Of a stretch of DNA of 64,000 nucleotides, positions 3,077 to 59,295 are shown piece after piece. Position numbers and translations under genes: made by a program. The DNA lies in NCBI GenBank assembly GCA_032718475.1, contig JAUCBJ010001005.1:10751-74750 (forward strand), written 5' to 3'. Within the stretch, counting starts at the first letter, position 1. Each line of letters opens with the position of its first letter. The DNA comes from Nemertoderma westbladi. Its lineage: Eukaryota > Animalia > Xenacoelomorpha. Under the pieces are notes generated by a model. The model was not told the origin of the DNA. It was given only the letters and a program-made list of their open reading frames with translations, and did not search any database.

Positions 3077-3099
3077 CGTGGCAAGGAAGGTTGTGAGTC

Positions 3100-5143: not shown

Positions 5144-5159
5144 TCAAAGTGGACGGGAC

Positions 5160-23266: not shown

Positions 23267-23344
23267 CCGCTCCCAGAAAATGGGATTTAAGTCTATAAAA
23301 TATAAAAAATCACAGTTTCTAAAATACAAAAATACTCTAAACTA

Positions 23345-35611: not shown

Positions 35612-37239
35612 GATTTATTTTACAGTTGAATGCCTACTACTATAATGACAGTTAAAGCAAGTCTAGGAATCAGTATCAACTGTCAGCCTAGTAGTTATTT
35701 ACTGATACCGTTACTCAGTGTAACGTGATATATATTTAATATTAAACTACCGGTATACACTTATAGTATATATATAAGTATTATTTACAGACTAGGATCA
35801 GTCACAGAATACCGGCATATACTTTCAGCCTAAATTTATATAAATATAATAAGCTTACCGTAAATACCGGTAATGTCAATTATTTAATAATAACTGAATT
35901 TCTGAAATTTAGGGTTACTTCCCTTTACTTTATTACTGATATTAAGCAGTAGTTCAACTGATATTAAGACCTATTTGATGTATGACAGGCCTACTATTTT
36001 ATAAATCTGATTGAGTTGATTTATAATTATAAATATATACCCGTACAATGGGTTTTGATTATATTTGAAATAAATGTTATTATTTCTGGATAAGAAGTCA
36101 CTACACAGAAGCTAAACGCTCTCAGTGGAGTGCTACTTGTTAGACACTAATACTGATAATTCTAATTTACTAAGTTACTTATCACTACAAATTACTTACA
36201 ATCAGGTTGAGATTACAATCTCTAAATAAACAGTAAACAAGTTACACGTACAATTTTTTAGGGTAATTTTACAAGAAATCTACAAACCAGTCTAACAAGG
36301 AGTTAGAATTTCTGGTTCTTACAAACTGACAGGAAACTACGGTAGTTGAAACCAATAAAGTAGTAGTAAGTAAGTTGCGTTTTCCAGATAAGGAAATGCC
36401 ACCGTCTGACGACTTATAGTTTTAAACTATAAGTTATGTACCTGGAGTGTCCTTACCTAGAGGTTAATTATCGAAGCCAACCAGAGCTAACGTACCTATT
36501 AACCACGTTACAACACAAATATACTGCCTACACACTAAATTACTTTTGGAAAGCACTGTACGCTAAACCCTAAATTAGGTACAAGTACTTATACAACAAA
36601 TAACCAGCAGTTAAATATACGTGAATAGCCAAAAGAACCACGGTATCTGCTGGAGTGACCGGAGCACAAAGTCACCAGTCTTTACCTATGCCAAGCAGCC
36701 CTGATGTAGTACCGGGGTTAATTTAACTATAACAGTATGTATAACAAGCACAATTACTGTAGGAATAAACTTGGGGAATTGGAGGTTGCGAATACTCGCA
36801 TAAACTCTGAATAATAAATATTACGCTACCCGTGCAGACTATTCAAACAAAACACAGACCAAATGCTGGCAGACTACTGTCAAGCCTAAATAAATAGTAT
36901 ATGCAGACTCTGAAATGGTTAGTTAGTAGGCGTTCTAACCAAGTAGTACGACTTATTCTTTCGGGGGGGATTTACCTTACAGCACTGGATGCCCCCACCT
37001 TCCTAACTAGCACTTTATCGGACAGACACTCTTCACACACCGCAATCGCCTCAGACCTAACAACAGTTAGACAACAATCCGGCCTACAAATTATTTATAC
37101 AATCTGAGCAGGCTTACGTGCCTTCTGCTCAATATTACACTTACAGATAAATAAAACTGACAGAAATATATATGCTCTAAAAGAAATAAGGGGTGTACAG
37201 TCCCTACTCTCTTAAACAGCCTACTAATATACAATATTG

Positions 37240-37333
37240 AGAGTAGCGCCCACCCCTACCCTCGGGTAGCAGCTATCGAAAGAGGAGCCTTCGGGTCGCC
37301 TCCGGCTTCGGCCGACTGTTTGCTTGCTTGCTT
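37240..37333 (+). mobile_element. 5'-truncated SINE family 1 tail inserted in the E1 leader
   Basis: Near-identical to 10892-10985; absent from the homologous E2 leader (~39840). Confidence 0.85.
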
Positions 37334-37451
37334 ATCACAATCGAAATAATACTGCTGTACCTGTAAGTACTGGTTTGGGTGATTAGGCCTACAGTTTTAC
37401 TGTCTGACTGGTACATTCGACTTTATTGTCTACGGCACAATAAAGAAACCC

Positions 37452-37463
37452 TAAATCTATTAA
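37452..37463 (-). promoter_or_regulatory. E1 non-tRNA primer-binding site candidate TTAATAGATTTA
   Basis: First 12 nt after the 5' LTR CA; exact complement of its own LTR sequence at 38232-38243 (and 22911-22922). Confidence 0.7.
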
Positions 37464-38420
37464 TGTTCGCGCTTTTAGACCTTTAGCAGTTTAACCTGCC
37501 AATTTTAGTTGTCCCCTTGTTTATAAATCGACTTTAGCCTTTTACCAATTACCTAGTGTACTGAAGTTACATCAGCCAAAGCCAGTCCGTGCGCGGCGTA
37601 TGACCCACGGTGTGGGAGACTGGATTCGGATTCCTTGGGAGTTATTGCAGTGTAGACCTACTGTATTATTCGATTGATCGCTACTATATAATCTCTGACA
37701 ACTATATTCACTTTCGGGGAAATATTAACAGTTCCTTTAGGATGTGGCGCTTTAAGTATAAAAACAGAGTTATGACTTATACTAATCACAACTAGATGGC
37801 CACAGAGTTTCGTAAATAGCGCATTCTTTAGGAGATGCTTTATTAACCTTCACACTACTTCACACGACTTCACACTACTTTACACTAGTTCGCACTAATC
37901 TGCCGACCGTCACTGAATTTGATCATATATAAGGAGGATCTCAACTGACACACGTAGGGATTATGAAATAGCATTTAATTCACACAAAACCACTATAATT
38001 TAAGTCGCAGTTGCTACCAGTAAACTCTATTCCTCTTACCTCAGTAATCAATAAGATTGAGGGGTTTATGATTATTTATTGGTATTCTCCAAATATAACA
38101 TCAATATCCATTAATATAACAATTAATACTATAAACAGAAGTAAATAATGCGGTGAACAGTCAGTATGTGTTACTTATGCAGTTATGAAATGTTCAGTGG
38201 TGCGTCAAATAAGTTGAAATGTGATCAAATGTTAATAGATTTACGTTCTTATAACCAAGGCCATCTGATGTTCCTAGGCCAAAGTCTGAAACTTCCGCAC
38301 AGAAGCACAGAAAATTCTGAGTTGGTTCTGATGCTCAGAAAATAGTAAACAAAGACCGTAATGCATTGCGTGAGTTTCCATAGGTTTCTGTTAGCTGTAA
38401 AGTGAAAATTGCTCTGATTG
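37464..38420 (-). repeat. 5' LTR of E1, downstream part (remainder at 58663-58833)
   Basis: Near-identical to 22145-23099 and interrupted by E2 at GATTG. Confidence 0.95.
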
Positions 38421-39614
38421 TGTAAAAGCTTTTGCGGATATACTCAGTCCCCCTCGACCGCAAGGTACCGTTATAGGTGTTTTAACGGACATAAAAGTCA
38501 TTCTTCTATATGTGTGCTTTGGTGGACATGGTAAGGCAAAAAACCCGCAATGCGTCAAATACCCTGGCACAGCTTAGCCTTGATGATTCAGATTACGACA
38601 TCTAACAGCTGGTTGCTGACATGGAAACAGCCATTGGACACATGGTTCTTTGTTTAGCTTAACAGCCAATCAGAGCGATTTTTTCTGTCGATGTGGAGAT
38701 TTTTGGCAGATCATGCTAGGAGTGTTCAGTCTTACTGTTTTTCTTGATACTGTTGTGTTGTTTCTATCTAGGCCAGGAACACCGGCTCTAGAGTCAATTC
38801 GTTTCAGACTTTAGAAGAAACATTAGTAGGCTTAAGATTATAGAGCGTATAACTGTTATCTTAACATATCATATCACATACCATAACAATCACTTGTCAT
38901 ATCATATCTTAACCTACCGTCTTAATGCTTTTACTGTTGTCATATTTTGTATCAGTTAGTTGAATATTATTTGGAGAACATTTATAAAGAACCCAAATTT
39001 CCCAATTTTCTTGATACACTACAGGTTAGAGAGACAGGTTACATATAGCGATTGCGACTTACATTATTGTGGTTTGTAGTGAATTTAATGCTATTTGATA
39101 AGCCCTACATGAGTCAGTTGCTGTTCTCTTTATATATGATAAAATTCATTGACGGTCGGCAAATTAGTGAGCAGTATTGTGTGTTACTGGTAGTGCGCAT
39201 GATTGTGACTGATAACTAAGCATTTCCTAAAGAATGCGCCTCATACGTGAATCATAAGACTTACCGACTTACCGTTGTGATTAGTATAAGTCATATCTCT
39301 GTTTACCTAGATAGAGCGCCACGTCCTAAAGGAACTGTTAATATTTCCCGAAAGTGAATAATATTAGTCAGAAATTATTTATTAACGATCAATCGAATAA
39401 TACAGTAAGCTTACACTGCAATAATAATCTAAGCCCTCAGAATCCAGTCTCCCAGGTATATCCAGCGGGTGAATGGACACGCACTAGGCTGGCTTCTGCT
39501 AATGTTGTGTTTATTGGTATTAAATATTTGTCAATTTCTAAAGTCTATTTATAAACTAAAAGACATATAAATTTTGGCAGGTTAAACTGCTAAAGGTCTT
39601 CAAAAGCGCGTACA
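38421..39614 (+). repeat. 5' LTR of E2
   Basis: TGTAAAAGCTTTTGCGG...AAAAGCGCGTACA; direct repeat of 57464-58657. Confidence 0.97.
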
Positions 39615-39625
39615 ATAACAGTTAT
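39615..39625 (+). promoter_or_regulatory. E2 non-tRNA primer-binding site candidate ATAACAGTTAT
   Basis: First 11 nt after the 5' LTR CA; exact complement of ATAACTGTTAT at 38849-38859 (and 57892-57902). Confidence 0.7.
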
Positions 39626-41849
39626 TGACTTTATTGCAGTAAGCAATAAAGTTGAAAGTACCGGTCGACCGGTAAACCTGAACCGGTACTTCTGTAGGTC
39701 AGTAGGCCCAACTGCCAGAACCGGTACTGCTGTAGTTCCGTAGGTCCAACTGCCAGAACCGGTACTTCTGTAGGTCCATAGGCCCAACTGTCCTAACCGG
39801 TACTTCCAGTATAAGTACATTAGTATTATTCGATTTTGATTATTGTATACCGGTAGGTCTCGATATTAAATCGGGGACGCCTGGTTTTTATTGGGATTTT
39901 ACTTAGGTCTATTTCTGTCAGTTTTATTTCCTAGTAAGTTAATATTGAGCTGAAGACGTGTAAGTCTGCTCAGATTGTTCAGATAACTGTAGGCCGGACT
40001 GTTGTCGGATTGTTGTTGGGTTTGGAGAGATTACGGCGTGTGTAGAGTTTGTCTGATAAAGTGCCAGTTAGTAAGTTGGGCCAGCCATAGCTGTAAGGTC
40101 AATCCCCTCTTAAAGAATAAGTTGTACTACCGTGTTAGAACGCATACTAACTAACCATTTTGGAATCTGCACATACTGTAGTTTATTTAGGCTTGACAGT
40201 ATTCTGCCAGCGTTTTGGCCTGTGTTTGTTTGTGTGGTCTGTTCAGGTACCGTAATAGTTATTACTCAGATATTTTGTAGGCTGGATTGTTGTCTAGCTA
40301 TTATTAGGTCTGAAGAGATTGCTGCGTGTATAGAGTTTGTCTGATAAAGTGCCAGTTAGTAAGTTGGGGCAGCCATAGCTGTAAGGTCAATCCCCTCTTA
40401 AAGAATAAGTCGTACTACCGTGTTAGAACGCATACTAACTAACCATTTCGGAATCTGCACATACGGTAGTTTATTTAGGCTTGGTGGTAGTCTGCCAGCA
40501 TTTGGTTTGTATTTTGTTTGAGTAATCTGTACGGGTAGCGTAATATTTATTATTCAGAGTTTATGCGATTATTCGCAACATTCATGTCCCCAAGTTTATT
40601 CCTACAGTAATTGTGCTTGTTATACATACCGTTATAGTTAAATTAACCCCGGTACTACACGGACTGCTTGGCGTAGGAAAAGACTGGTGACTTTGTGCTC
40701 TGGTCACTCCAGCAGATGCCGTGGTTCTTTTAACTGTTCAAGTATATTTAACTACTGATTATTTGTTGTACCAGTACTTGTACCTAATTTAGGGTTTAGT
40801 GTACAGTGCTTTCCGAAAGTAATTAGTGTGTAGGCAGTATATTTGTGTTGTAAAGTGGTTAATAGGCACGTTGGATCTGGTAGTCCGCGGTAATTAACTT
40901 CTAGGTAGGAACACTCCGTGATACATATCGTAGTACCTATAGCGATACGGCTATAGGTCGTCAGGCGGTGGAATCTTCCTATCTGGACAGTGCAATATAT
41001 TTACTACTACTTATTATTTTAAAAAACCGTAGTACCCTGTCCGTTGTAATAATCAGAATCCTAACCCTTTATTAGGCTGGTTTGTAGACTTCCTGTGAAA
41101 TTACCCTAAAAATTTCGTACGTAATATTTTGTTGTGTTTAATTAGAGATTTAATCTCACCTTTATCGTAAGTAATTTGCAGTATTAAGTAACTTAGGTAA
41201 ATTAGAATTATCTGTTTTAGTGTCCATTAAATAGCACTTCACTGAGAGCGCACAGCTTCTGTGTAGTGACCCCCCAGAAATAATAACATTTATTTCAAAT
41301 ATTGACAAAACCCCCTTTAAACGGGTATATAAATATTATAAATCAACTCAAACGATTTATAAATAGTAGGCCTGCCATACAATAACTAGGTCTCAATATC
41401 GGTTGGACTACTGCTTAAATAACGGTAATAAAGTAAGTTAAAGTAACCAAGTAACCCCAAAATATTCAGAAATTCAATTATTCTAAAATAATTGACATAC
41501 CGGTATTTACCATAGGCTTATTATATTTATTTCTATAAATTTGAACTAAAATCATACCGGTATTCTGTAATTAATTCTAGTTTATAATTATACTTATATA
41601 TACTATAAGTGTAAGCTGCATACCTGTATTCACGATAGGCCTATTATATATTTATATATATTTGTCCTAAAATTATATACCGGTATTCTGAGACAAACCT
41701 AGTTTACAATACTTATATATATTATAAGTGTATACCGGTATTCTAATATACTGTAATAAATTAACGGTACTAGGCCAACGGTCATACTGAATTACTAGAC
41801 TTGCTTTAACGGTAACTATAGCAGTAGGCATTCAACCGTATAGCTAAAC

Positions 41850-44800
41850 ATGTCTGACACCCAGCAAAACCTGTCAGACAGTCTAATCGATACAACCATC
41901 TGTGACACAGATAGGAGTGTGGAGCGATTAAGAAAGGAGTTCAGCTCACCTCCTACTGAAAGAAAGGTCATCCCTCCAGTAGTAGTATCCGACCCTAAGC
42001 TAATCCAACACCGTAGGTCCATCATCGGCACTCGGGCCCAGGTCAAACGGAACCAGGAAGCAGCTGTCCAACAGCAGCAACATCCTAGTCAAGAAACTTG
42101 TTCCCAGCGATCCGATAGCTCCAGTAGTTCGGATACTGTAGAGCTGACCCCGAACGCGGAGTGCAGATGGCGGCTACAGCCTACTCGGATCCCCTTCTCA
42201 CCCTTCCTGCCGCAGTGCTAACTACTATATTGATTGCGGTGGAGGAACATCAAGCCGATTGGGCGAGAAGTAAGTGAGCGACCCAAGATAATTATGCGGG
42301 ATACGCCAGGGAAGAATTGATGTCTATTGTCGAGTCACAATGGAACTTTCCCGGACCCGGACTTCCATTAGATTTGTCCGAAGCTACTTGGGAAGATATA
42401 CACAGGATGGGAGTGGCTAAAGATACGATGGATCCAGCTGTTTGGAAGAGGTCGGCAGCAGGATATGTGCAGGGATTCTTCAGCTCCTTAGAGCGATTGG
42501 AAGAACAATTGTTTCGACAACCCCAAGGACCTCAAGAGCAGGAAGAGCTGCTTTATCAAGTACGCGAAAGAACCCTACGCATTAGACTAATCCTATCAGC
42601 CTTTGAGGAAACTTCCAAAAGAAGACAGGACACGTTGCTGCAGGTTGCTGTCAAGACTTGGTTCCAGCGGGTAGGTCTCAAAGTTCAAGAAACGGCCCAG
42701 TGGAAATCCCAGCTGACTGAGTGACCAACCTATGAAGAACCAACCGATACTACCCTTTCTCAAATAGAAAGCGAAGAGACACCAGCAGAGCAGCCGCCCT
42801 CGAGAGACGCCATAGACATCTATCTGTCAGACTATCATCGATTCCTAGGAGACAAAGAGTTGAGGAGACGACTGTCTGGACTTCGCCCTAATAGTGAAGG
42901 AACCAAGCTTGTGTTGGACGCAATCGATGCGTAAATGTTAGCTGCAAACCAAGCTAAATTTGATGAAAAACTCCGCCTCGCTAGAGTCCAAGAAGAACAA
43001 GTAAAGAAAAAACGGATAGAGGACCGAAAGGCAGCAGCAGTAACGGCGGCAGAAGCAGAAGCAGCAAAGGCAGCGGCAGCGACAGAAGCAGAAGCAGCAA
43101 AGGCAGCGGCAGCGGCAGAAGCAGAAGCAACAAAGGCAGCGGCAGCAGCAGAAGCAGAAAGAAAGGCAGCGGTGGCAAAAGCAGAACTGAGAGCGTCTGA
43201 GGAGACTACCCAACTAGAGTTGGAAAATCTGCAAGAGACGCAAGACAACATAAATAAACAGTTAACTGCTAGTCACATGCAGATGATGCGAAGATCTACT
43301 CCCAAACGCCAGGGATATACATCATCGGAGGAAAGCGAAACCACCGATCCTGAAGGCGGAGGAAATAGATCTCGTCTAAGCAGGCGTAGAAAAACATCTT
43401 ACCGTCACAAATTGCCTGATTTGCCCCCAGCTGTTAGAAGGCAACTAGCTAGCACAGACTTAAGTAGTATAGAACCTACAGACCAAATTATTAAGGTCAA
43501 AAAACTCCCTACTATAGTTGATGAGCCTGAAATAATTAGGCCTGTCGTTCCCAAAGTCACTCCTGTGCTAGAGACCCCTGTACTTCCAGAGCTTAACTCT
43601 AAATTCCCTTTACACAGTACTACACTGCCTGTACCCGGTAGAACAGTCCATGAGAATATCCCTGTCCTGGAAGCTGAGAGAGAAATCAAAGATTTGTCTC
43701 CTGTCGTCCCGCGTCAGCCCACTACAATGTTGGCGACTCCCGCTTCGGCGGTCGAGTGGGTAGAGGAGGGACGGCGGGGGATGAATCTCCTGCTCGGACA
43801 GATGCAGGAGACTGTCCACCAACTTAAGGGAACCGTAAGGGAAGGTAGGGCAGAATTGCAAGAAGTGCAGCTAAGTATCGCGCTAGAACGCGACAAATTA
43901 GTCAATATACAAAATGGTATACCAATACCCCCTGTAAAATTGTGTCAACCTGTTAGGTCTGAAGTATTACATGCGCAAGGTGTTGAGCCTACACGCATCT
44001 ATACTGCTAGTGAAGTAGAAACTCCTGTAGCAAACCCTATTAAGGTTGATTATAGACCTGTTGTTAATGATATTCCCTATAGACCTGATAATGATCCGAG
44101 AAATTTATACACCGATAATTCGATATTAAATAACACGATGGCCAAGAAAGCTTTACGCGTCAGATGGCTAGAACAGAAGCCCGCCAAGCGGTCAAAGTGG
44201 GAGAGATCGTCAAATTCAATGGAGATGAGATGAAATGGTTACCTTTCAACGAATATTACAAAGACAGCATACAGAACTCTGTGCTATCTAACGGAGAGAA
44301 ACTTAGGTTCCTCATCAAGTGCTTGGAAGGACCTCCCAAGTTAATGGCGTTAAAGTTTATTGGACATCCAGAAGGATTAAGACAAGTTTGGGATACATTA
44401 AACATCAGGTATGGTAACAAGGATAACATAGCTAAGTATTTGTATGCAAAATTAGTAGCCCCCCGAAACTTCCTTAGTAGCGGGATTATAGAGTTTTCCG
44501 ATGAGATTCAGGAGATCTGTAGACAATTGGACTGGTTAGGTAAGTCTCATGAATATCAGAGTTCCATGGTTATTGGAGCCGTAGTCTCTACTTGACCAAA
44601 GGGTGGAGTATGTACCCGTTGGGACAAGAAAGTGTTGTACATGAATGAACAGCAACGACGAAGCCCTACCATGACTGATCTCATGTCCTTCTTAGATGGT
44701 GAAGTGAAACTACAACTCATCAAGCAGTCCAGAGAAAAAACATCGGAAAATAAGGTAAGTGAGAAACCCGTTTCTAGGAGAAGAGTCACACCAGTGTGTT

Positions 44801-47800
44801 ACACTGACGACGGCGAAACCCAAGCTTCTCAAGAAGAGGACAGCGGGAAAGACACTGACAAATTTTACTACGTTAACAAAACCCCAAAAGACGTAAGTAA
44901 ATATAAGGCTCGAACCAACGATAGGAGAGAACAGGTTGCCAAGACCCCTCCTCAGTCTCCTAACAGAATGCACGGAAGAAAGCCCGAAGAAAGAACGAGA
45001 GTGCATCAGGTTACCCAAGGTAAAGTGAGTAACATAAAACCTAACTGTGCTCTGTGCGACGGGACCCACCGTTTGAGTGCGTGTGCTGAATTTCTAAAGA
45101 AATCTCTTGTAGACAGACGTGCAGTCGTGTGGGATAAGCGGTTATGCTATAATTGCCTCAGACCAGGACACCAACGGCGAACCTGTTACTCCGACGTAAA
45201 GTGTGCAAAGTGTAGCGCGAAACATCACATCTTGTTACACAGTGAGTTCGAACGAGACAACCCGAGTCAGGTAAGTGAGCCCGAACTACATGTCCAATTC
45301 AGTGATGTAAATGACACTGATCAAGAATCTGAGATGGAAGGATTCTATACTGACGAATTCTCCGACGCCAACGAATCCTGTTATCTAATCAATACCGCGG
45401 TGTATCGAGCACTTACTTATGAAAAGGACACCAACAATGAGTTTCCCCCAACTACTTTTGCCAGACAACCATCGTGGAAAGCTCCAACTTCCAACGTAGG
45501 AATCAGAGAATTTCCTGTAGTGCAGGTAAGAGTTCATGGTCCTAACAAAAGTTACATAGTGAACGCACTCCTTGACTCCGGCAGCACAGGAACATTCATC
45601 GATCAAGAACTAGCCGAAGATATCTTTGCTGGACAACCCAAATTCCGGACTAAATTGAATATGTCAGGAATTATGCAGGTTTGGAAATCTACCCTAACGG
45701 CAGATTACTATGTAGGTGTGTTGTCCACCCCCCAGGATAAATTAGGAGCACAAGGGATAAGGTCGGTAAAAATGGTGGCTATAAAGAACTTCGCTAATAC
45801 CCAAGCAGACCTTTATAATTGGGACGAGGATGAGAGCATCCAACATCTTAAGATACCTCGATTCCAGACAGATTATCCTGGAGTGCAAATACTCATCGGC
45901 CAAAACGCGCATGAGGCGCTCGAGACATTGGAGAAACGGCCTGCTCAACCGCAGCCACTGCAAACCTATGCGGTAAGAACTAGAGTAGGTTGGTACTTTA
46001 CTGGCCCTTCCCGCAGGACTCTCGAAGAGAGAATGCCACAAGAACGAATATACCAAGTAAACGATTGGGAAGTGGAGAGCAGTGAGGTGGACGAACTAAC
46101 TGAGGGAACACCATACTCCTCAGATAATGACGACATCTACCAGCTCTTCGATGAAGAGAACACAATCGACCTACTTACAGAAAACCAAACTTGGAAAAAT
46201 CAGGTGAACCTATGTCAACTGATTCGCCCATCGGAACCCATTGCTTACAATGACGAACTAAACGATGAGATAGAGCGCTACAACGCTAGAACTCGGGACG
46301 AACTAGCCGTACGATTCTTTACTCAAGAACTGGTAGAGCCCAATTCATACGATAAGGCTCTATCGATAGAAGAAGAAAGAGCCAAGCAAATCCAGGAAAC
46401 AACTACACGTTTTTTAAAGGACCAAGGTAGATATGAAATCGGCCTACCATTTCGAAAACGAGAACCTAGATTTATAAATAACAGACCCTTGGCAGAGAAA
46501 AGAATCGCTCAATTGCATCAACGCCTTACGGCTAATGCTTCAGCCAAAGAAATGTACCAAACTCAGCTGAAGAAATTTATAACAAAGGGATACGCGGAGT
46601 GAGTACCGGAAGGAACACCAGTGACTGAGAGAACGTATTACTTAACACATCATTACGTTCCCAAACCCGGTAAACCCCATGAAGTACGAGTCGTATTCGA
46701 TGGCTCCGCGCTATATATGGGCCAATCCCTCAATTCCGACTTGTTACCAGGACCCAACTTACTCCAATCTTTGTTGGGAATACTTTTAAGATTAAGACAA
46801 TATTCCATCGCGTTCGCCTCCGATATAGAAGGAATGTTCTTACAAGTCAAGGCGCTGGATAGAGATAGAGACAGCCTGAGATTTCTGTGGTGGCCTGAAG
46901 GAGACCTCAATCAGAAACCTGTAGAGTACTGGATGACCATCCAGGCTTTTGGGATCATATCTAGTCCTTCCAACGCCTGCTCCGTGGTGCGAACCACTGC
47001 GAATGACAACCGAGACTCCTTCTCAAAAGAGGTGATAGACAACATCAAGTGTAATATATACATGGACGATAATTTAAGGTCCCTTCCATCAGTAGAAGAA
47101 GCCATTGATGTCGCGAAAGGAACAGTAGAGTGTTTGAAAAGAGGTGGATTTCGACTGACGAAATTCACCAGCAACTCCCGTGAGTTTCTGGAAGCGATAC
47201 CAGTAGAAGACTGAGGAACGAAAGACCTAGACTTAATAAAGGACGATCTTCCTGAAACCAAGACGCTTGGCTTGAAGTGGGACACTGAAAGAGACATCCT
47301 GTTTTTTCAGTTAAAACAGCGAGATAATCCAGTTCGGACCAAACGGATTTGTTTAAGTATCCTGAGCACTTATTTCGACCCATTGGGATTTATTAGCCCA
47401 GTTATATTGATTGCTCGGAGTTTAGTACAACAAATGTGGCTTGAAAACCACTCATGGGACGATCCGCTCAAGGGAGAACTGTTAAAGAAATGGATGAAAT
47501 GGGAGGACTCTCTACCTGCCATCGAGAACTTTATAATTTCCCGTGCATATTTTGGTCATGTTCTTCCTACTTATTCCTATCAACTCCATGTGTTTGAAGA
47601 CGCCAGCGACATGGGAATAGGTATAGTGGCATATCTGCGAGTCGAAACTCCGGATGGAATCAAAGTCGCCTTGGTTACCTCTAAGGCATTGATCAACAAC
47701 AAGTTAAAGGTTCCTCGAGCGGAGTTAAAGGCGGCTTTATACGCTACAGCCATCGGCCGGAACGTAACAGAACAAATCGACTATCCACTGGAGAAAACGG

Positions 47801-49959
47801 TTTATAACGGTTATTTAAAACGGACCGACGCTTTACTCGTGTTGGAGTATCAAACCAATGAAGTCTGTCAGTTCAGCGTTTTTGTTACTAACAGGGTAGC
47901 TATTATTCTTAGTCGCACAAAGATAGATCAATGGAGACATTGCCCTGGTACGATTAACCCAGCCGATATCGCCTCCCGGGGAGCAACTCCACAGGAACTG
48001 ATAGATACTCCAGATTGGTTGGGTGGACCCGACTTCCTGAGCAAGGAAGAGGATAAATGGCCTCCTCACCTTACTACGGCGGAGATTAGACAAGCCAAGG
48101 GAGCGGAGACAGTCAAACCTAAAACCCGGGCGAGTAAATTGAAGTTATTTAAACCGACTATCGATCTATCTGTATTACATACTTCCGGGAATGATGCTTC
48201 GGATCCACAATCCCTCAACACAAATAAGGCTGTTGTGGAAATTAGAGGTAGAGACTGGAAATCTGGAATACCTGACATCTCGCACGGAATCTCACCCCTG
48301 CTGCAGCGAGCAATGCATCACTACAGTTCCTGGAATCGGCTCTGTAAAGCCGTTACGTATTTAAGGAGATGTTTTCATCATCACTACTCCAGGACAAAGA
48401 CCATTAGTGATATCGCTCCATTGACATCTGCACAAGTTCATGTTATTAAAAATTTACCCAAATATAAGACATCTGACCGTTTTCTAAAGGAGAAAATTAG
48501 TCACCAGGAGCATGAAGAAACCAATAAGCAGATACTGAGACTCCTGCAATGCTATGAGGATTCCGAAAAGTATTTCCTGTTGTTGAGAAATCCGCAGATG
48601 CGCTTAAGGGATCGATTCTCTAGCACAATGATAGATGGGTTAATACGTGTTGGAGGAAGGCTCACCAATGCGCCCTTATCCTTTGACACTAAATTCCCCA
48701 TACTTATTAGAAATCTTGAAGTACAAATCAAGATGATTGTAGATGTTCACAGTAAACTTTATCATGCTGGTAGAGAACGAGTTCTTAGCGAAATTCGAAC
48801 TCGCTATTATTTTGATAAACCCCGTAGAGCTCTGAACCAAGTTCTTAGGGACCGCATACCCTGTAGGAAAGCATTCAGTAGGCCTTTAACACAGCGAGAG
48901 GCAGAATTACCTAGGGAACGAGTAAGCTTCTATGAACCACCTTTTACTAATACTGGTGTAGATTTATTTGGCCCTATTGAAGTATATCGTGCTAGGACTA
49001 TAGTCAAGAGATGGTGTGTCATCTTTGTGTGCATGACTTGTAGAGCCATCCATCTCGATATGGTGAACGATCTATCTACCAACAGCTTCGTATTAAGTTT
49101 ACGCCGACAGATCGCTCGCTTCGGGACGAGTAATACCATGAGATCGGATAAGGGAACGAACTTCATTGGTGCCAACAACGAAATACAGGCTTACGTGAAG
49201 GATTGGAACCAAAGACAGGTGGACGATCAGCTAAGGATAACAGCATCTAGCTGGACCTTTGACGCCGCCGACGCCCCTTGGTGGGGAGGAAGTTGGGAGA
49301 GATTAATTAGAAGTGTCAAGACCGCATTTCACTTTATAGTGCCATGCCGTGCGTATCTCACTGACGAACTTTTGCGGACGTTAATGGAGGAAATAGCTGC
49401 CTATCTCAACGAGAGACCGCTTATGCCAGTCTCATCGAGTCCCGATTCCCTGGAAGCGCTAACACCCACGCACTTCCTACTGAAGAAACCTGTAGCCATG
49501 CTCCCACGATCGGAGATTGCCGACGGAGACGAATACTGCCGTCGAACTTGGCAACTTATGCAGTTGCTATCTCGTCGTTTTGCTGACCATTTCGAGAAAC
49601 ATTATCTGCCCACGCTACAACTTCGAACTAAGTGGTTTGCGCAGCAAGAAAACGTCAGCGCCGGAGATATGGTGCTTATTGTAGATCCAGACCTACCACG
49701 TAAACGGTGGCAGACAGGTCGTATCATCGAGACTCACATCTCGGATGATGGTTTAGTACGCTCGGTAGAACTCATTGTCATGCGGCGTAACTTCAAGAAG
49801 CCAGGCATAATCTTTGAGACGCAACAACTCAATTGCCCAGTTGGTCGTTTATGTTTACTGGAAAGAGACAGAGAACTCTCCGGAAACTATGGAAGGCAAG
49901 ACACTCTTCCCACGACCACCTCCCTAATTCCTCAAACATCTAGGGACTCCCCAACGTGA
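41850..49959 (+). pseudogene. E2 gag-pol polyprotein (~2700 codons, several stops and frameshifts)
   Basis: DUF1759-like FNGDEMKWLPF..EKLRFLIKCLEG; BEL knuckles CALCDGTHRLSAC / CYNCLRPGHQRRTC / CAKCSAKHHILLH; PR ALLDSGS; RT YMDD; RH LHVFEDAS; IN GVDLFGP / SDKGTNF / WERLIRSVK. Confidence 0.97.
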
Positions 49960-50418
49960 TACGTCTGGAGTGGGTGTATGACTATATCATTTTATCTATT
50001 TTATTATATTTTATACGTGAACATTATTATGTACTTTATTATAATCGTTTTTATTCAATTTTATTTAGTAGAACGTTATTTTAGATTATTTAGTAGGTTA
50101 GTGCAATATATTATTGTTTATTACGTAATTACATATATAATATATATTTAGTGTGACGGCGAGAAATAATTTTTCTCTTTCCTTACTGTCCGTATCATAT
50201 TATAAATACGTGACTACAGTAAGATGAAATGTCCGTACTTATTAAAGTACAATAAAGCCACTACTATATTTAAGTATTATTGGTAGGCAGAGTATTAGGA
50301 ATGCAAAGTTCAGATCCTCGTGTCTCGGCTAAACCAAGCTCTGGGTAGACCTTGGAAACGACTTGCCTCTTCACACTGACATTGCTTCGTGCGATATTGC
50401 TCTTCTACCTTATATTAA

Positions 50419-51969
50419 CCCTATTAGTACCGGGCTATAAAATGCTGTACAAATACCGGGGGGGGGTCATATTGACCCCTCCCTCTAAAATCTACAAATA
50501 TTAACGAAAACGTCTGATTTTTTGTTTGTACGTAGGTATCACTAGTCTGGATCCGACCGAAAAAAAAAATTTTCAAAAAAATGGACTGGAGTGGTAATAT
50601 TGCAGCACCAAAATTACAAGTAGTGCACAATTTTCACAAAATTTGAAAGTTACATTTTTCGGCTAATTGTTTTTTAATACAGGTTTTCTGGGGCGCAAAA
50701 TACATTGGAAAATATTTAAAAATGATATGATTACCATAAATGGCTGTTTAGTCCTCTATGCGTAGGAAAAAAATGAAAAAAACAAGTAACCAGCACTTTT
50801 CAGTTAGAACACAAAATTTTTAATTCACTTATACGATGCTATAAATTCACATTTTTAGGTTTTCTAGGGCGCTGATTCTAATGGAATACATTTCAAATAT
50901 GCCAGATCATTGCTACTTGTATTTTTCGGCGTAATTTGGCAAATTTTGGTGCTAGCACCAAATTTCGTACCCATCACCAAAAAGTACAAGTTTGCGATGT
51001 CCAGTGCTGTTTTTATTGTTTCCATCGGATTCAGGACCCTCATAAACCCGTATAACGCAAGAAACAAGATGATACTATCTACTGATCAATTTACTCATTT
51101 TCCAAAATTTGGTGCAAAACAACAATTTTCACCCACCGGCGAAAAATACAAGTTTGAAAACTCTTATGAAATTTTTACTGATTCCATTGAATTCAGAACC
51201 CTAACAAACCCGTATAACGCAAGAAACAAGATGACACAATCAATTGATATATTTGATGGTTTTCAAAATTTGGTGCTAGCACCACATTTTGCACCCACTT
51301 CCGAAAAATACAAGTTTGAGATGTCTAGTTCGATAATTATATATTCCATTGAATTCAGAACAGCCATAAACCTCTAAAATGTAAGAAATAAATTGTCACA
51401 AGCAATTTTATCTATTGAATGGATTTTCAAAATTTCGTGCTAGCACCAAAATTTGCACACAGCACCGAAAAATACAAGTTTGATACGCTTGGTGCAACTC
51501 GTATACATTTCATCGAAACCAGAACCCCAAAAAACCCAAATTGCGTAAAAAACAAGTTTCAAACAATCAATTTACAAAATTGACATATTTCAAAATTTGG
51601 TGCTGGCACCAAAATTTGGCACTCGCCGAAAAAAAAAGTTTGAAATTTCTAAATCAATTTATATGAATTCCATCCAATTGCTAACACCAAAAAACCGGTG
51701 TAAATAAAAAATAGAGATGTTACAATTAATATTTAATGAAATGTAATTTTCAAAAAACGTCTCAAAAAAAGTGCCAAAAGTAGGGTTAAAAAATGGTGCT
51801 ATAACTCGAAAACTACCCAATATTTTTGAAAACGGTTTTCACTACTAGGAAGACAATAGATTTTTAGGAAAAGTCATAAAATTTCAGAATTCCAACTGCG
51901 TTTGTTTCAGAATTATAATAAAAAAACCACGGGAGGGGTCATATTGACCCCCCCCCGGGTTTAATAGGG
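50419..51969. mobile_element. piggyBac-type non-autonomous element inserted in E2
   Basis: TTAA TSD; termini CCCTATTA..TAATAGGG; subterminal GGGGTCATATTGACCCC at both ends; absent at the homologous E1 site (~28390); ~163-bp internal tandem units. Confidence 0.9.
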
Positions 51970-53131
51970 TTAAATAATACATATAGTAGCGTGATGTCCT
52001 CTAACAGTAGCGTAAAACGCAAATAAATCTGTTAAACCTTTTGACCATCTGTAATTCTAGTCGATTAAGATATCGCGGCACCCACCGATATACTTGAAAG
52101 ACAAACTTTGGAATCAGTGGTTAACGTCCCCAGACAAGTTCTGGAATTAATCGGTGCCCATCTTAAATATTAATTTAATATTTATTAAAATCTGTAAAAT
52201 TCAGATCCTTTAAAATTTCTAGTCAATTAAGATATCGCAGCACTTACCGATACTCTTAAAGGACAATTTTATAGAATTAAGGATCCTCAGTCCCCAGACA
52301 TGTTCTGGAACAAAAATTGTGTCAATTTTAACATCAAATAATAAAATTCACCAGAATAAATTTAAATTCATATTTTAAATGAATTTCATAAATTGTCATT
52401 TTGCGCAATTTATAACATTCCCAAAATTCCATTAATTAATAGATCATGGGAGCGGAGATTCATCCTATTGAGTGTATTAGAGTGCGAGAATCTCCAACAT
52501 ATAGTCAATAGCTGATAAAATTAATAAAATCATACATAAAGAGGATATTGACAATTAAAGAATTACTATTAAATAGCATCCCAGATCTGTATGCATGAGA
52601 ATTACCCTAATTCTACCGCTAGCATTCCACAATGTCACCATAGCAACACCCACGCTAGAATTAGAAGCAAGTTAAGAGAACAATAGAAAGCTTGTCCCAT
52701 TGCATAGTATAGAGAATACATAGCACACTGTTAGTATCCAAGGATACACAGTAACAACGTGACATTCTGGAAGGCACTGACTAACGGACAAATGGCCTGC
52801 ATGTGTACAATTTGTGACAGTTGTGTGGAATTTGTGCGTTTATAGGTGAATGTTACTGCTAAAGTATGTTTACAGTAGCTAGTCGCAATTGTAAAAGTAG
52901 CCCAACTCTCCTATAGAAAGAACCTAAGTGGATCCAAGCCTTTGGGACGGACAGTGGAGTGACTTGTGCCGGTTATCGTTGTCGTGCTGTTGCTACATGT
53001 TGGCGTAAACACCGCGACGACGGTACATCGGCGCTGAGAATCCCACTGTCCGGGGGCAAAGAGAAGTAGGCAGCGACGCCCGCTCGCCTAAATATAAACT
53101 CATTTGATATTAATAAACTCAGATAGCAGAT

Positions 53132-56100
53132 ATGACGGAGTTGATAGAAGATGATCTTGGTATTAGGGAGCGATATACTCTACCTTTGCAAGCATTTGTG
53201 GATAGCTTAATACGCGGTGAAGCCGATCCAACCATTACTGAGGACGATGGTCGTTATATCGAACCGCCAATGTCCCAAGAGCAACTTGCGCGTGAATTGG
53301 ACTATCGAAAATTCACCGCTCGCTATACGAATCGTAATGGTACGTATATGGACTTCTTAACTACCAGCCATCCTATCGATTTACATGATACGGACGATGT
53401 AGATACAGAGAGGGAAATGGTTCTATTTAAATATCATACCCAGCGGAGTCGTAACGATAAACCGAGAATAGATCACGAAAATTCTATTCGTAATAGGCAG
53501 GAAAGAGAAAACGTTGAAGAACCGGATAAACGCATCGACTTCAACGAATACCTAGAATTTTTGAGAGAAACCTATCTCAACATCGCCAGTCAGCAGAACC
53601 TAGAGACTCGATATCCTCAAGGTATACATCATGACCCTGTGGTAGAACTCAAACGGCTCTATTTCATGATGATGTAGCTTACCGCCGATCGTCCACTACC
53701 TGTTATCCCGGATAGTTTTGAACAAATGGAGGAATATTGCAAAACTGGAGAATGATCACCCGCGTTTCCTCTACAGGACGTACGTCTTTGGTATTATTGT
53801 GACGAATGCCCTAGACCCAACCAACAAACTGAAAGACATAAACATCCGCGGAGACGTTGCGCTAAACACAGCTTTACGCGTTACACTTACGGGAGTTTCG
53901 AGCGAAACCTGTACGACGTACCACCTACGATCGCTCGTCTTAAACGATCACTGAATAAACCCATGATCAGAGTTCCGGAATACTCGGTCAGGCCTCCTCA
54001 TTCCCTAGTGAGACCTCAAACTCTTGATCCTAACAGTATCACTGATCCTCCCAAACTATATTCCCTGTTCAAAGACTTAGTGTTACCCGAACAATTAATC
54101 GGTGGTGCTCCGGTAGTGGGTTCGTTAGACATTCGCCCATCCTACTTAGCCGGATTGGGACGTGGGCAGCTAATATTGCCCTTTGATCCTTACAATCGTC
54201 CAGGATTAAACCCGATGCAACCCGCCACGGAAGTCGAGGAGAGCGTTATAAGAAACGCTTTAGACGCTATTCGACAGAAGATCGGAAAGGGAACACAAGA
54301 TTGTTTAGAGAAACGTAAATTACAACAACAAGTCCAATCGGTGAAGGAGTTAGCCTTGCCACAGTTCGATAGAGAAATCCAAAACCTCGAGGAAGACATC
54401 GAGCTTGGACGCACGTATTCTCTACAATAATTTTTAGATGAACGCTTACAGAGACAAGCGGAAGAAAATCTACTCGAGGAGAAACACACGAAACTGGAAG
54501 AGAGAGAAGAAGCCGCTTTAGCCCAACCTGAAGCTCAAATCCTTATGACGGACCTCTACTCTCAAACCATTCGTCATCCCTCGATGATTCCACATTTCGG
54601 AGACAAACTCTTCGCGACGATACAACCTCAACCGGTTGATATCAGTACAGGATCGCAAAATCTTATCGCTGACGCCCCTATGTTACAGCGTCCGCCGATA
54701 GAGGCCGCTCGTGTTGACGGTATACTCGTTGAACCTCCGGACAATCGAGCGGATCTTGTCCGTCGTATGGTACACGATGTCAATATACGCGCTAGACCTT
54801 TACAGAACTCGTTTTATGGGATTAAAGACCACCCTTATTACGTTAATCTGACTCAATATTATATGGTAAAACCAGAGGACCCGACGCATAATTTAAAGTT
54901 TCTACCACTAATAAATCCTCTAGACATTGTCGAACTCGAACAATTGCAGAAACATCTGGATCAGTTAGTAAAAGTAAACTCATTTAGAAAACCATATAAC
55001 ATTTCTAGAATCGAGAAAGATATAGAACCCCCTTATAATCTCGATGGATTTATTAAAACTCGATTAGTCCATTGGAATCTAGATGTATTATTTGAAGAAG
55101 AGAAAATACAAAGATATGGAAATGTGGAGACGTATACCACTCGGCACATGAAGTATAGTGATCTCCCTGGCGCTAACCAATGCGCCACCTTGTGGCATCC
55201 AGTAGGGATGACCCTAGAGAACGCCACCAAGGAGTGGAATGAAACTCTTAATGTTATTGAGATGTATGGAGTTGTCACCTACGATAATGAAGGTAGCATT
55301 CCTGTCGGAGAACTAGGAACTACGCGCATGATCCACATACGCAGATTAGCTGGTTCTACCCATGTGTTTACTCGAGCGTGTTCCGACGTGATTGATTATT
55401 CCTTTGAAACTCTCACCGAAACACAAAAGTATCTCCGACATGGACAATTCGAACTCGCGCAGCGTTACGTCATTGACACCGAACGCAAACCGGCCATGGG
55501 TATCGATGGATCGATGCTACCCCAGCCAGTACTCGAGATGTTGTTCAACGAAAGAATCCTTAAAATCGGCTCAGCTGTTTATGGAGATCTCCAAAACGAC
55601 TTTCGGAATATGGAGAACATTCCATACCCTTTCGTTGATACTCAGCTGATTGCTCCCTGGGCAGAAGTTCGAGGTTTCTTCCGCACCATGTATGCTAATA
55701 CGTCTAGCAACATTACAAAGGTGCAACAAACTTCCATCGGACATCTTGCCTTTCAGGAATACGGATGGAATTTCAAAGTCGGAAATCCCATTAACTATCA
55801 ACAAGTATACGGAGACCATTATTCTCGATTATACTTTGATGGACCATTGACCGCACCTGGCGCCGTGTATAGCTTCATGAGTGTTCCACTCCGTCCCTCC
55901 TTAGCTATATACACGATCTTTGAAAACACCGCACTTGCCGGTTGGCTAGCCGATGTGTGCAGTCGTACTATACGCGCCCATCCATTAATACTTGGGACCA
56001 AACTCGCTAAGCTAGATGAACATAATAAATTCATCCGCTTCGAATGTTTCCGGCGATTTTTAACCCCGTTCCGCAACGTGGATAGCCAATTTAAAGACCG

Positions 56101-57385
56101 CGCTTTGACCAAGCTCAGCCTAAGAAACTCAGCTGCAGAGAAGTTGGATAGCGCTGGATTCGCCATTTTCCAAGAGATTTGTATTTCGAACTTGCACTCC
56201 TCTGTTATACAAAGACCTCGAATCCCCACAGGTTATTCTGTCGTGGAAAATCAGACAATAGGTCCACCTGAAGAGACAGACACGCCCACCTCAGCTATGC
56301 ACTTGGAAGACGAACCAATATGTCTAGAATCTGAGGAGATTCAGCCTATCGCGCCCCGGAACAGCGACAACGATTACATCATAGAATGGTATCAAGGTCC
56401 ACAGTGTCTCACTGCGTACGATTATCGACATGCCAACTATGTTTCTAGGCAACGTTGTCGGTTATGCGCATCGAGAGACCATGATACGCCCATGGACACA
56501 AACGTCCGCTGTTCCTATTTCCAAGAGCAACCGACTATGGAAATTTATTGCGCATATTGCAGACTCAATAACTTGCACATTTTTGCGGTTTGCCCTCAAT
56601 TTATGACTCAATGTCACCATTGTCAACTAAAGGGACACGCCAGTTTCGATTGCCCTTTTAATCACGATTTGGAAAGCGTAGATGAAATGATCACACTACG
56701 TTACATCAGAGCTTGGGAAGCGAACGCTGATCTACATTGTGATTCGCGCCATCGCTATTATCCTGGACGCGCTTACGAAGGAGTTTATGCGTTCCATCCT
56801 TATCTATTCGCTTCTGTCGAACAGAAATCACGCATATCGAGTTACGAACTACTGAAGCGCGTCGGAGAATGTATTTCAACCAAGTTTGTACGCAAATTTC
56901 TTAGGAGTGTTAATCCTAGCGACCTTCATTCCTATAACTTAATCAATTATATCCGTCAGGATCCAGACTATGGAGACTTATTTGTTAACTCACACCCCGA
57001 GTTACAAGAAGTATATCGACGGCCTTACGAATACCGAGCCCGCGAACGCGAGTTGGAAAGAACCATTAAACCCAGGAGGTTTCTGACTGCCTATGGTCCA
57101 CCCACGGCTCTCGTTCAGACCACTCGTAAAGGACCCGTAAGAGCGGCTGTCTTAAAACGAGCTCTCAAAGCCGTTAGACCCCTCTCCCCCGACGTTGATG
57201 TCAATCAACCCGGTACTTCGACTGGCGGATACACCGACCATAATCCTACACCCTCTGATGCAATCATATTGCACCCTTCACCCAGGAGTTATAGCCCTCC
57301 TTGTAAAGTGGCTCGCCCCAAAGAGAAAAAGACTCTGGCTAGCTTTAAAAAACTGCGTAAACGCCGTCCGCGCAAGAAAGACTAA
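53132..57385 (+). pseudogene. E2 accessory ORF3 (~1417 codons, three in-frame stops): DEDDy 3'-5' exonuclease-like domain plus three CCHC knuckles
   Basis: ORF pieces 53132-53677, 53963-54430 and 54545-57385 are in one frame; exonuclease-like motifs at ~55250-55960; knuckles at ~56455-56655; basic C-terminus KKLRKRRPRKKD. Confidence 0.85.
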
Positions 57386-57454
57386 CTGTTTAGAGTATTT
57401 ACATATATTAGAAACTGTGATTTTTGTATATTTATAAACTTGAATCCCATTTTC

Positions 57455-57463
57455 TGGGAGCGG
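57455..57463 (+). promoter_or_regulatory. Short PPT-like tract TGGGAGCGG abutting the E2 3' LTR
   Basis: Same sequence and position in E1 (23267-23275, minus strand). Confidence 0.7.
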
Positions 57464-58657
57464 TGTAAAAGCTTTTGCGGATATACTCAGGCCCCCTCGA
57501 CCGCAAGGTACCGTTATAGGTGTTTTAACGGACATAAAAGTCATTCTTCTATATGTGTGCTTTGGTGGACATGGTAAGGCAAAAAACCCGCAATGCGTCA
57601 AATACCCTGGCACAGCTTAGCCTTGATGATTCAGATTACGACATCTAACAGCTGGTTGCTGACATGGAAACAGCCATTGGACACATGGTTCTTTGTTTAG
57701 CTTAACAGCCAATCAGAGCGATTTTTTCTGTCGATGTGGAGATATTTGGCAGATCATGCTAGGAGTGTTCAGTCTTACTGTTTTTCTTGATACTGTTGTG
57801 TTGTTTCTATCTAGGCCAGGAACACCGGCTCTAGAGTCAATTCGTTTCAGACTTTAGAAGAAACATTAGTAGGCTTAAGATTATAGAGCGTATAACTGTT
57901 ATCTTAACATATCATATCACATACCATAACAATCACTTGTCATATCATATCTTAACCTACCGTCTTAATGCTTTTACTGTTGTCATATTTTGTATCAGTT
58001 GGTTGAATATTATTTGGAGAACATTTATAAAGAACCCAAATTTCCCAATTTTCTTGATACACTACAGGTTAGAGAGACAGGTTACATATAGCGATTGCGA
58101 CTTACATTATTGTGGTTTGTAGTGAATTTAATGCTATTTGATAAGCCCTACATGAGTCAGTTGCTGTTCTCTTTATATATGATAAAATTCATTGACGGTC
58201 GGCAAATTAGTGAGCAGTATTGTGTGTTACTGGTAGTGCGCATGATTGTGACTGATAACTAAGCATTTCCTAAAGAATGCGCCTCATACGTGATTCATAA
58301 GCCTTACCGACTTACCGTTGTGATTAGTATAAGTCATATCTCTGTTTACCTAGATAGAGCGCCACGTCCTAAAGGAACTGTTAATATTTCCCGAAAGTGA
58401 ATAATATTAGTCAGAAATTATTTATTAACGATCAATCGAATAATACAGTAAGCTTACACTGCAATAATAATCTAAGCCCTCAGAATCCAGTCTCCCGGGT
58501 ATATCCAGCGGGTGAATGGACGCGCACTAGGCTGGCTTCTGCTAATGTTGTGTTTATTGGTATTAAATATTTGTCAATTTCTAAAGTCTATTTATAAACC
58601 AAAAGACATATAAATTTTGGCAGGTTAAACTGCTAAAGGTCTTCAAAAGCGCGTACA
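57464..58657 (+). repeat. 3' LTR of E2
   Basis: Direct repeat of 38421-39614, followed by TSD GATTG. Confidence 0.97.
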
Positions 58658-58662
58658 GATTG

Positions 58663-58833
58663 GCTGAATAAGACAAAACAAAGAACTTCCACGTCCACAA
58701 AGAATCAGCTGACAGATTTCGTCATCTTGGTTCTAATTCCTTCCCGTCGCGTAGTTGGATAAATTTAGGGCTATTTTAGAGTATTCTGCGCATTGCGTAA
58801 AAATGACTTGTTATGTCCGCAAAAGCTTTTACA
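58663..58833 (-). repeat. Displaced 5'-most part of the E1 5' LTR
   Basis: Matches 23100-23266 and is followed by TSD ACCTC. Confidence 0.95.
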
Positions 58834-59295
58834 ACCTCCCCCATTCCTTGACATGCTTTCTATTGCCTAGCCTTGCTGCTAGTGTCACCACTAGTGTAAA
58901 GTACCAGACTAATAAGCCAGCTTGCTTTATCTCGCAAAATGATTGACTGAGTATTTAATCGTGATTCTTTGGAATAATTAGCTAAATAATTTCGCGGAGG
59001 TGTTAGACATGACAAATTAATATTTCAGTATCAATACTATCGGCATAAGGTAAGTTTTAGTAATTTTTACTAATTGGGTTGCCTCCACATCTAAAAATAT
59101 ATTACTTTTAAAACACAAATTTCCTGTTAATACCTCTGCCTTTCATTAATCCTCTGTGACCCTTTGGGTTGGGGGGGGGGGGGGGGGGGGGGGTGTGTGT
59201 GGGCAGAAAGAGGGCGGTTGAAGCAAAGGGGGAGTTACTCACTTCTTTGATTTATACTTATTGAATGGGAGAATCTTTTAGGCTCGTTAAGGCAA

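Follow-up and report, generated by a model that had tools for sequence, protein, structure and literature searches.

A predicted DEDDy-like exonuclease gene and a self-priming signature in two nested BEL/Pao-type retrotransposons of Nemertoderma westbladi

A DEDDy exonuclease in the third open reading frame (ORF3) of retrotransposons that have long terminal repeats (LTRs) is already known from bdelloid rotifers, in which the elements Juno and Vesta encode such a protein with the motif DEED and with its activity undemonstrated (PMC5408684), and DEDDy ORFs of retroelements are treated also in PMC5718144, PMC6338049 and PMC6431247. For these captured exonucleases the rotifer description shows, in its available text, neither activity nor selection. 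Here we analyse a 64,000-nucleotide stretch of the genome of the xenacoelomorph Nemertoderma westbladi (assembly GCA_032718475.1, contig JAUCBJ010001005.1, positions 10,751 to 74,750 of the forward strand; hereafter the window), in which two related BEL/Pao-type LTR retrotransposons are nested, element E2 (38421..58657, plus strand, 20,237 bp) and element E1 (22145..58833, minus strand, about 16.4 kb excluding E2). In both, an ORF3 with a predicted DEDDy-like exonuclease domain and zinc knuckles is accompanied by a self-priming signature that is, as far as found, new for BEL/Pao elements.

With Juno and Vesta the two elements share an RNase D-like DEDDy ORF in the env position, the lack of membrane segments and a variant acidic set, which is DEED in the rotifers versus D-E-D-E in E2. 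Unlike Juno and Vesta as described, E2 and E1 are of BEL/Pao type, their ORF3 of about 1400 codons has a C-terminal knuckle array, and purifying selection on it is shown; the comparison is one of descriptions only, and the DEDDy ORF sequences of Juno, Vesta and Athena surfaced in no search. A DEDD exonuclease followed by tandem CCHC knuckles is also found in the Trypanosoma brucei RND (TbRND; PDB 7C42/7C45), whose knuckles bind to the RNA upstream of the 3' end that is trimmed and whose authors call the combination very unusual (PMC7797062). TbRND is a mitochondrial cellular enzyme of about 350 amino acids (aa), all four of its knuckles are canonical and its linker has 28 residues; in ORF3 only one of three clusters is canonical, the linker measures about 155 residues, and the N-terminal region is long. 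TbRND was not among the matches listed at E<=10 in sequence searches, and it took a profile made up mostly of bacterial rows to obtain an E of 0.069. In comparison with the PF01612 branch (WRN exonuclease, EXD2 and Mut-7), ExoII aligns clearly and the ExoIII context Pro-Leu...Tyr matches WRN and Mut-7, but the domain lies below the Pfam cut-off, has Glu at the last acid and is enlarged by two insertions, one of about 29 residues following the third strand and one of about 30 ahead of ExoIII. Mobile-element DEDDy exonucleases occur also in Dada DNA transposons (PMC3706591) and among the accessory ORFs of Terminons (PMC6431247), but the Dada domain lies inside the transposase, Terminons are Penelope-like, and no knuckle array is reported with the nuclease in the available texts. 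The accessible literature, searched with supplements and Repbase outside the search, yielded no report of a BEL/Pao-encoded exonuclease or of BEL/Pao self-priming; PMC3118150 and PMC13524379 contain no word starting with 'exonuclease' or 'nuclease', and the text of PMC13524379 contains no 'self-prim'.

The predicted exonuclease and knuckle region of ORF3

The original prediction, made by a model from the letters alone, had placed a DEDDy exonuclease domain fused to three CCHC knuckles in the env-position ORF of E2. Judging from profile comparisons, the segment 55196..55990 (plus strand) is very probably a DEDDy-like 3'-5' exonuclease domain of the DnaQ fold, a domain type that we regard as well supported. 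No Pfam match was found in the nuclease domain of E2 or E1, and the curated cut-off of PF01612 is not reached; the domain is filed as DEDDy-like, short of PF01612 membership. In the ESM Atlas its features score 0.93 to clusters of 3'-5' exonucleases in which 60% and 34% of the proteins carry PF01612 (recognition 2744), with all ten of the best named matches in one family or clan, and the NCBIfam RNase D model gives an E of 0.0027 over the ExoII region, far below its cut-off. When 1.84 billion representatives were scanned in full with phmmer, a single protein matched, P0001 (E 3e-6, 29% identity), an unannotated singleton of 648 aa from an ENA contig of 9449 bp, which itself reaches 11.9 bits against PF01612 (cut-off 23.6). 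As bait we used a family for which 120 bacterial loci were fetched with a short motif, giving 78 long-enough frames, 77 of them kept; the four bait proteins tested all pass PF01612, and the nearest solved relatives of one of them are WRN, Mut-7 and EXD2. The 77-row WRN-like profile built from this family scores E2 at 12.9, E1 at 10.9 and P0001 at 8.9 bits, with a maximum of 0.0 in 200 shuffles, and its hidden Markov model (HMM) alignments span the ExoII region only. HHalign gives 93.4% for E2 and 96.0% for E2 together with P0001, compared with at most 19.9% in 40 shuffles.

P0001 combines a canonical ExoI, an ExoII context as in E2, a Tyr-x3-Glu ExoIII and three Cys/His knuckles. When E2 and P0001 are compared against shuffles, the 45-residue stretch before ExoIII and the knuckles stand out (p=0.0005), as does the ExoIII region (p=0.017). 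Past the knuckles (p=0.88) and in the linker (p=0.64) the two proteins do not match, and homology there was rejected. By their sequences, E2 ORF3 and P0001 form an undescribed subfamily. Further relatives were found neither by word-index protein searches, which covered limited length ranges and returned nothing with the window's domain and P0001 itself with P0001, nor by DNA scans of metagenome, viral and prokaryote contigs, nor by phage tblastn; a PDB sequence search with the nuclease domain also found nothing. The domain together with its knuckles, as originally proposed, thus gains profile evidence and a remote homolog of the same layout, short of the Pfam cut-off. The nematode part of the precedent named there was not found in print; should nematode Cer elements carry an exonuclease domain, BEL/Pao exonuclease capture itself would have a precedent. 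The rotifer part agrees with print (PMC5408684).

All motifs quoted in the original prediction are present in E2 ORF3 in the order it stated, and their assignment to ExoI, ExoII and ExoIII holds to different degrees. ExoII (Asp codon at 55586) is well supported, its Asp lying in a helix-strand-helix context; when 42-69 of the 77 bacterial rows are aligned with it, Lys, Gly and Asp never vary. ExoIII (Tyr codon at 55910, Glu codon at 55922) is supported through one homolog, reading Tyr-x3-Glu in E2, E1 and P0001 versus the canonical Tyr-x3-Asp; the predicted replacement of Asp by Glu is therefore seen in all three, and the Glu codon differs synonymously between E1 and E2. This conservative variant lowers membership in the family, not the expectation that the domain works like it. 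The ExoI register with Asp at 55283 and Glu at 55289 is probable, with other registers possible. An ungapped 21-column helix-strand match at this place beats 30 of 30 shuffles; MAFFT, given family rows only at ExoII, puts ExoI and the next two strands of P0001 on 55283/55289, with a 29-residue insertion after them; and both AlphaFold runs give, with low confidence, helix-strand-strand-strand at the proposed ExoI and a helix over the middle register, the main alternative. The canonical ExoI segment of P0001 itself fails to beat shuffles (10/30), so the fragment test for ExoI has low power. E1 lacks the second acidic residue of ExoI.

Three Cys/His clusters follow the nuclease on the plus strand. 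The claim of three CCHC knuckles stands in full for the third, a canonical CX2CX4HX4C at 56612..56653 (Pfam zf-CCHC_3 E 0.0096, below cut-off); the second, CX2CX5HX4C at 56549..56593, departs from the canonical spacing and its last Cys is not kept in E1, and the first, CX2CX4HX9C at 56456..56512, is atypical. Two CCHC-type patterns occur in ORF3 compared with none in 5000 shuffles, and the layout of exonuclease then knuckles is common to E2, E1 and P0001. The knuckles of P0001 resemble retroviral nucleocapsid (E 1e-4) and, weakly, Air2. A PDB sequence search with the knuckle region of ORF3 gave Air2 at E 5.4 only, and an ESM Atlas search that also took in the C-terminus brought up nothing stronger than zf-CCHC/Air2-like leads below 0.9.

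The gene holding these domains is a large sense ORF between pol and the 3' LTR in both elements, as predicted, with the E1 homolog on the minus strand. E2 ORF3 (53132..57385, plus strand) comprises 1417 codons, which agrees with the anticipated protein of about 1400 aa, but the full frame is broken in both copies. In-frame stops lie at 53675, 53753 and 54428 in E2, where the 3' part is open (54431-57385, between the end of pol at 49959 and the start of the 3' LTR at 57464) and provides 946 aa from the Met at 54545 (54545..57385, plus strand); its end is 78 bp from the 3' LTR. In E1 ORF3 (23345..27101, minus strand) two stops occur, at 25781 and 23554, about 498 nt are deleted near 25700-25714, and the frame shifts near 25491. 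In a codon comparison of E1 and E2 that left out stop and gapped codons, the ratio of nonsynonymous to synonymous divergence (dN/dS) of ORF3 is 0.088 (1244 codons) and that of the nuclease region 0.066 (237 codons; 95% bootstrap 0.03-0.12), neither near 1, with 0.105 in the N-terminal part and 0.24 in the tail. The corresponding values in pol are 0.107 for RNase H-integrase and 0.075 for reverse transcriptase (RT), and two shifted frames used as a control give 2.6 and 3.8. ORF3 is thus under purifying selection as strong as that of pol. Its synonymous divergence (dS 0.77) is similar to that of pol (0.59-1.05), and therefore ORF3 travelled with the element as a working gene. A nested or passively carried host gene was rejected on the place and orientation, which are the same in E1 and E2, and on the pol-like divergence. 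An env identity was ruled out by the absence of a membrane segment, none being found in ORF3, where hydropathy in 19-residue stretches peaks at 1.2 across the entire frame, as the original prediction had anticipated.

The N-terminus of ORF3 is acidic, and its roughly 690 N-terminal residues (53132-55195) are conserved between the copies where comparable (dN/dS about 0.10). They have no Pfam match, and a PDB sequence search with the segment 53756-54427 found nothing. A possible further zinc site, CX2CX11HX4C, lies at 53798..53860 (plus strand) and is also present in E1. At the other end, a basic C-terminal tail (57347..57382, plus strand) is NLS-like (resembling a nuclear localization signal) by composition only.

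Probable self-priming in BEL/Pao-type elements

The gag-pol of E2 (42935..49959, plus strand) is interrupted by stops and has the order Gag, protease, RT, RNase H, then integrase; the gag start of E2 proper lies further upstream of 42935. Its Pfam domains are DUF1759, protease, RT, Peptidase_A17 (E 6.5e-34), integrase zinc finger and DUF5641, and the elements are therefore classed as BEL/Pao-type, on these domains, the protease-RT-RNase H-integrase order, the TG...CA LTRs and the target duplications of the two sequences. The Gag and Pol domains, their order and an LTR length of up to 1.2 kb are common to BEL/Pao elements (PMC8742986, PMC3118150). The profile of the family Belpaoviridae by the ICTV, the international committee for virus taxonomy, gives 4.2-10 kb, an 18-nt host tRNA priming site and an env-like third gene (PMC8742986). 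The length range is exceeded by both E2 (20.2 kb) and E1 (about 16.4 kb), and in contrast to the tRNA-primed elements with an env-like third gene described so far, E1 and E2 have no tRNA-type site at the LTR and a non-env third gene.

No TGG was found in the first 200 bases after the 5' LTR of E2 or E1, a result obtained without a tRNA library and compatible with a distant site; a Gypsy element in the same window, which served as a control, does show a TGG primer site. Instead, the first 11 bases after the LTR in E2 and the first 12 in E1 are perfectly complementary to a site within the LTR. Priming by a tRNA at the LTR edge was rejected on both counts, the missing TGG and the pairing of the adjoining bases with the LTR. 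In E2 the predicted 11-nt self-primer lies at 38849..38859 (plus strand; second copy 57892-57902) and its binding site at 39615..39625 (plus strand), directly adjoining the LTR. The predicted primer of E1 lies at 38232..38242 (minus strand; second copy 22911-22921), at a position homologous to that of E2, and its binding site at 37453..37463 (minus strand) directly adjoins the 5' LTR. Within the LTRs the sites occupy the homologous positions 429-439 in E2 and 345-356 in E1.

The two 11-mers differ at positions 2, 4, 7 and 11, each change being matched in the element's own binding site, and cross-pairing between E1 and E2 extends over only 6 nt. Because the binding site is copied from the primer in plus-strand synthesis, a self-primer leaves complementarity that is kept despite divergence. 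Complements of the observed length were reached by 27 (E2) and 7 (E1) of 20,000 shuffled LTRs, and the same pairing length occurs at 4 (E2) and 3 (E1) of 600 offsets, offset 1 included. Folding 806 nt of E2 from the primer site onwards gives pair probabilities of 0.65-0.99. Both sites start at A after a conserved CGT, which fits the geometry of Tf1, and about 755 nt separate primer and binding site. We consider Tf1-type self-priming in E1 and E2 well supported and, on these sequence features, highly likely.

In Tf1 the primer is made of the element's own first 11 RNA bases, cut off by RNase H (PMC7175516), and self-priming has been reported for Tf1/Sushi, Tcn1 and TAR/Houba/Osr-1 (PMC6317226, PMC4600332, PMC6934838). 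E1 and E2 share with them the lack of a tRNA site and an 11-base LTR stretch complementary to the primer-binding site. The known self-primers are Gypsy (Tf1/Sushi, Tcn1) or Copia (TAR/Houba/Osr-1) elements, whereas E1 and E2 are of BEL/Pao type, with a spacing of about 755 nt and an exonuclease ORF. The rotifer paper mentions neither a primer-binding site nor tRNA (PMC5408684).

Possible roles of the exonuclease

The nuclease-plus-knuckle part of E2 is intact, belongs to a gene under selection and stands beside a clear self-priming signature, from which we infer an activity, a substrate and a link between exonuclease and primer. ORF3 is an accessory gene, conserved in both elements, and probably encodes a metal-dependent 3'-to-5' RNA exonuclease with predicted zinc knuckles. 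By analogy with the trypanosome RND, it is likely to act on RNA and to clamp its substrate with the knuckles, and its motifs suggest that the domain was, on balance, catalytically active with a D-E-D-E(y) site. Our tentative proposal is that this exoribonuclease trims the element's own RNA, the self-primer included. The knuckles would grip the single-stranded 3' RNA tail, and trimming could start from a cut downstream of the primer or from a short LTR transcript. The exonuclease would then chew the 3' tail back to the 11-bp duplex, leaving a 3'-OH for RT, which is the weakest step, and the bases lost in trimming could be restored at strand transfer by the terminal repeat at the RNA's other end. 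TbRND is a precedent for an exonuclease with a CCHC array that trims an RNA 3' end (PMC7797062). The proposal in its full form, in which a giant animal BEL/Pao lineage abandoned tRNA priming and encodes its own D-E-D-E(y) knuckle exoribonuclease to make an exact 11-base self-primer, is unlikely to hold in every part. If true, a primer-maturation enzyme would be a third start for LTR reverse transcription beside tRNA priming and self-cleavage by RNase H, and primer maturation could supply a function for the DEDDy ORF3s of other retroelements.

Several observations weigh against primer trimming by an active exonuclease. The link between exonuclease and primer is a co-occurrence in one lineage, in two related elements. 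The Tf1 primer is made by RNase H alone and needs no exonuclease (PMC7175516), and the RNase H motifs of E2 look retained by eye. ORF3 is separate from Gag-Pol and has the NLS-like tail, so that its packaging into the particle is only presumed. The primer pair of E1, the older element, has a probability of 0.0 when E1 itself is folded, and conserved TATA-like motifs are located further downstream than the primer site (E2 LTR 563 and 711). As regards the catalytic site, the ExoIII fragment was equalled against the bacterial profile by 7 of 30 shuffles. ExoI can be aligned in three places, its automatic placement varies with the rows used, a 7-column match at an alternative ExoI near 55469 also beats 30 of 30 shuffles, and MAFFT often favours the middle register, which lacks the catalytic Asp. 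The fold prediction suggested with the original claim neither showed nor refuted a DnaQ fold, as the models did not converge. A single-sequence AlphaFold model of the domain reached a predicted local distance difference test score (pLDDT) of 33.7 without convergence. A second one, for which an alignment with family rows confined to ExoII was selected after trials and AlphaFold was left to place ExoI and ExoIII, reached a pLDDT of 52.1 and a predicted template modelling score (pTM) of 0.36 and did not assemble. Fold searches with these low-confidence models gave no hit at E<=0.001 in Foldseek and none at Z>=5 in VIA-align; weak rows for EXD2, WRN and an exosome chain (Z 3.1-3.7) are circular with the model's input alignment.

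Of the two functional guesses of the original prediction, RNA or primer processing gains support from the self-priming signature, and anti-silencing would be a close rival. As counter-defence, ORF3 would degrade or over-trim host PIWI-interacting or small interfering RNAs (piRNAs/siRNAs) or tailed precursors, and the self-primer would be unrelated and made by RNase H. We hold this to be somewhat unlikely. An accessory, separate ORF of 1417 codons would suit such a factor, as would its basic NLS-like tail and an N-terminal stretch of about 690 residues without known domains, related folds act in small-RNA pathways (Mut-7, EXD1 and Maelstrom; PMC5408684), over-expression of TbRND depletes small guide RNAs (PMC7797062), and most BEL/Pao elements replicate without such an ORF (PMC8742986). 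However, no paper on a transposon-encoded anti-silencing DEDD enzyme was found, and counter-defence leaves the co-occurring self-primer unexplained. The self-priming signature provides a precise candidate substrate, an 11-bp RNA duplex with a 3' tail, to set against the small RNAs, and either outcome would be informative, as a new route of primer formation or as a transposon nuclease directed against small-RNA silencing in an animal.

The doubts about the catalytic site raise the alternative of a weak or dead exonuclease fold that serves with its knuckles as an RNA-binding adaptor, in the way of EXD1 or Maelstrom, with transport, packaging or the annealing of the primer duplex as its task. The Glu in place of Asp in ExoIII, the missing second ExoI acid of E1, the large insertions in the domain and an unproven ExoI register, of which one alternative alignment has no Asp, are all compatible with it, and inactive DEDD derivatives that retain RNA binding have been noted (PMC5408684). 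We nevertheless think it improbable, given that E2, in the preferred register, and P0001, at 29% identity, both have all four acids and the Tyr, and that E1 has decayed and carries several further lesions. Still less probable is a role on DNA, in which the exonuclease would proofread the products of RT or trim complementary DNA ends before integration. Among solved proteins, WRN exonuclease comes closest to the bacterial bait family, the DEDDy domains of Dada transposons have been proposed to process DNA ends (PMC3706591), and proofreading could benefit a 20-kb element, but CCHC arrays, that of TbRND among them, typically bind single-stranded RNA, a score is also obtained with the RNase D model, and the ORF3 protein is not fused to RT. 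Finally, a likeness limited to the ExoII stretch of some other fold, or a passively carried host gene fragment, would agree with HMM alignments that span ExoII alone, the absence of a Pfam match and a model that did not assemble, but is very improbable with a dN/dS far below 1, a divergence about as in pol (dS 0.77 versus 0.59-1.05), the complete motif order of P0001 and the agreement of the Atlas and HHalign.

Structure of the nested elements and other features of the window

E2 sits in the opposite orientation (head-to-head) within the 5' LTR of E1, with both target duplications intact. The duplication of E2 is GATTG (5 bp; 38416-38420 and 58658-58662), and that of E1, ACCTC, flanks both of its sides. 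The LTRs of E2, both on the plus strand, lie at 38421..39614 (5' LTR, 1194 bp, TG...CA) and 57464..58657 (3' LTR) and have 8 mismatches between them. On the minus strand, the 3' LTR of E1 lies at 22145-23266, and its 5' LTR is split by E2 into 58663-58833 and 37464-38420. A short purine-rich tract adjoining the 3' LTR of E2 (57456..57463, plus strand) is a candidate polypurine tract, and the identical sequence is found in E1. E2 has at least six in-frame stops (in 42935-49959 and 53132-57385) despite only 8 differences in 1194 LTR positions, with about 14 substitutions expected in ORF3; perhaps E2 arose by copying in trans of a parent that was broken before.

The leader of E2 (39680-41732) is long, with tandem repeats of 38, 288 and 123 bp, and the region from LTR to gag measures about 3 kb. 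An Ala/Glu/Lys-rich tandem repeat is present in E2 gag at 43046-43172, and E1 gag has another repeat. Between pol and ORF3, E2 alone carries an AT-rich insert (50418-52184) with about four tandem copies of a 162-bp unit at 50940-51604. A 93-bp piece of the E1 leader (37241-37333) is 99% identical to 10892-10984 outside E1 and is perhaps a small repeat inserted later. Just outside E1, a 63-bp unit is repeated in four tandem copies at 59294-59542. A Gypsy-type LTR element occupies 601-6780 on the minus strand, with LTRs 98% identical, protease, RT, RNase H, an integrase, and the TGG primer site mentioned above. An open frame at 15370-16113 contains a Glyco_tran_28_C domain (E 3.3e-28), is apparently intronless across the domain and is presumably ALG13-like.

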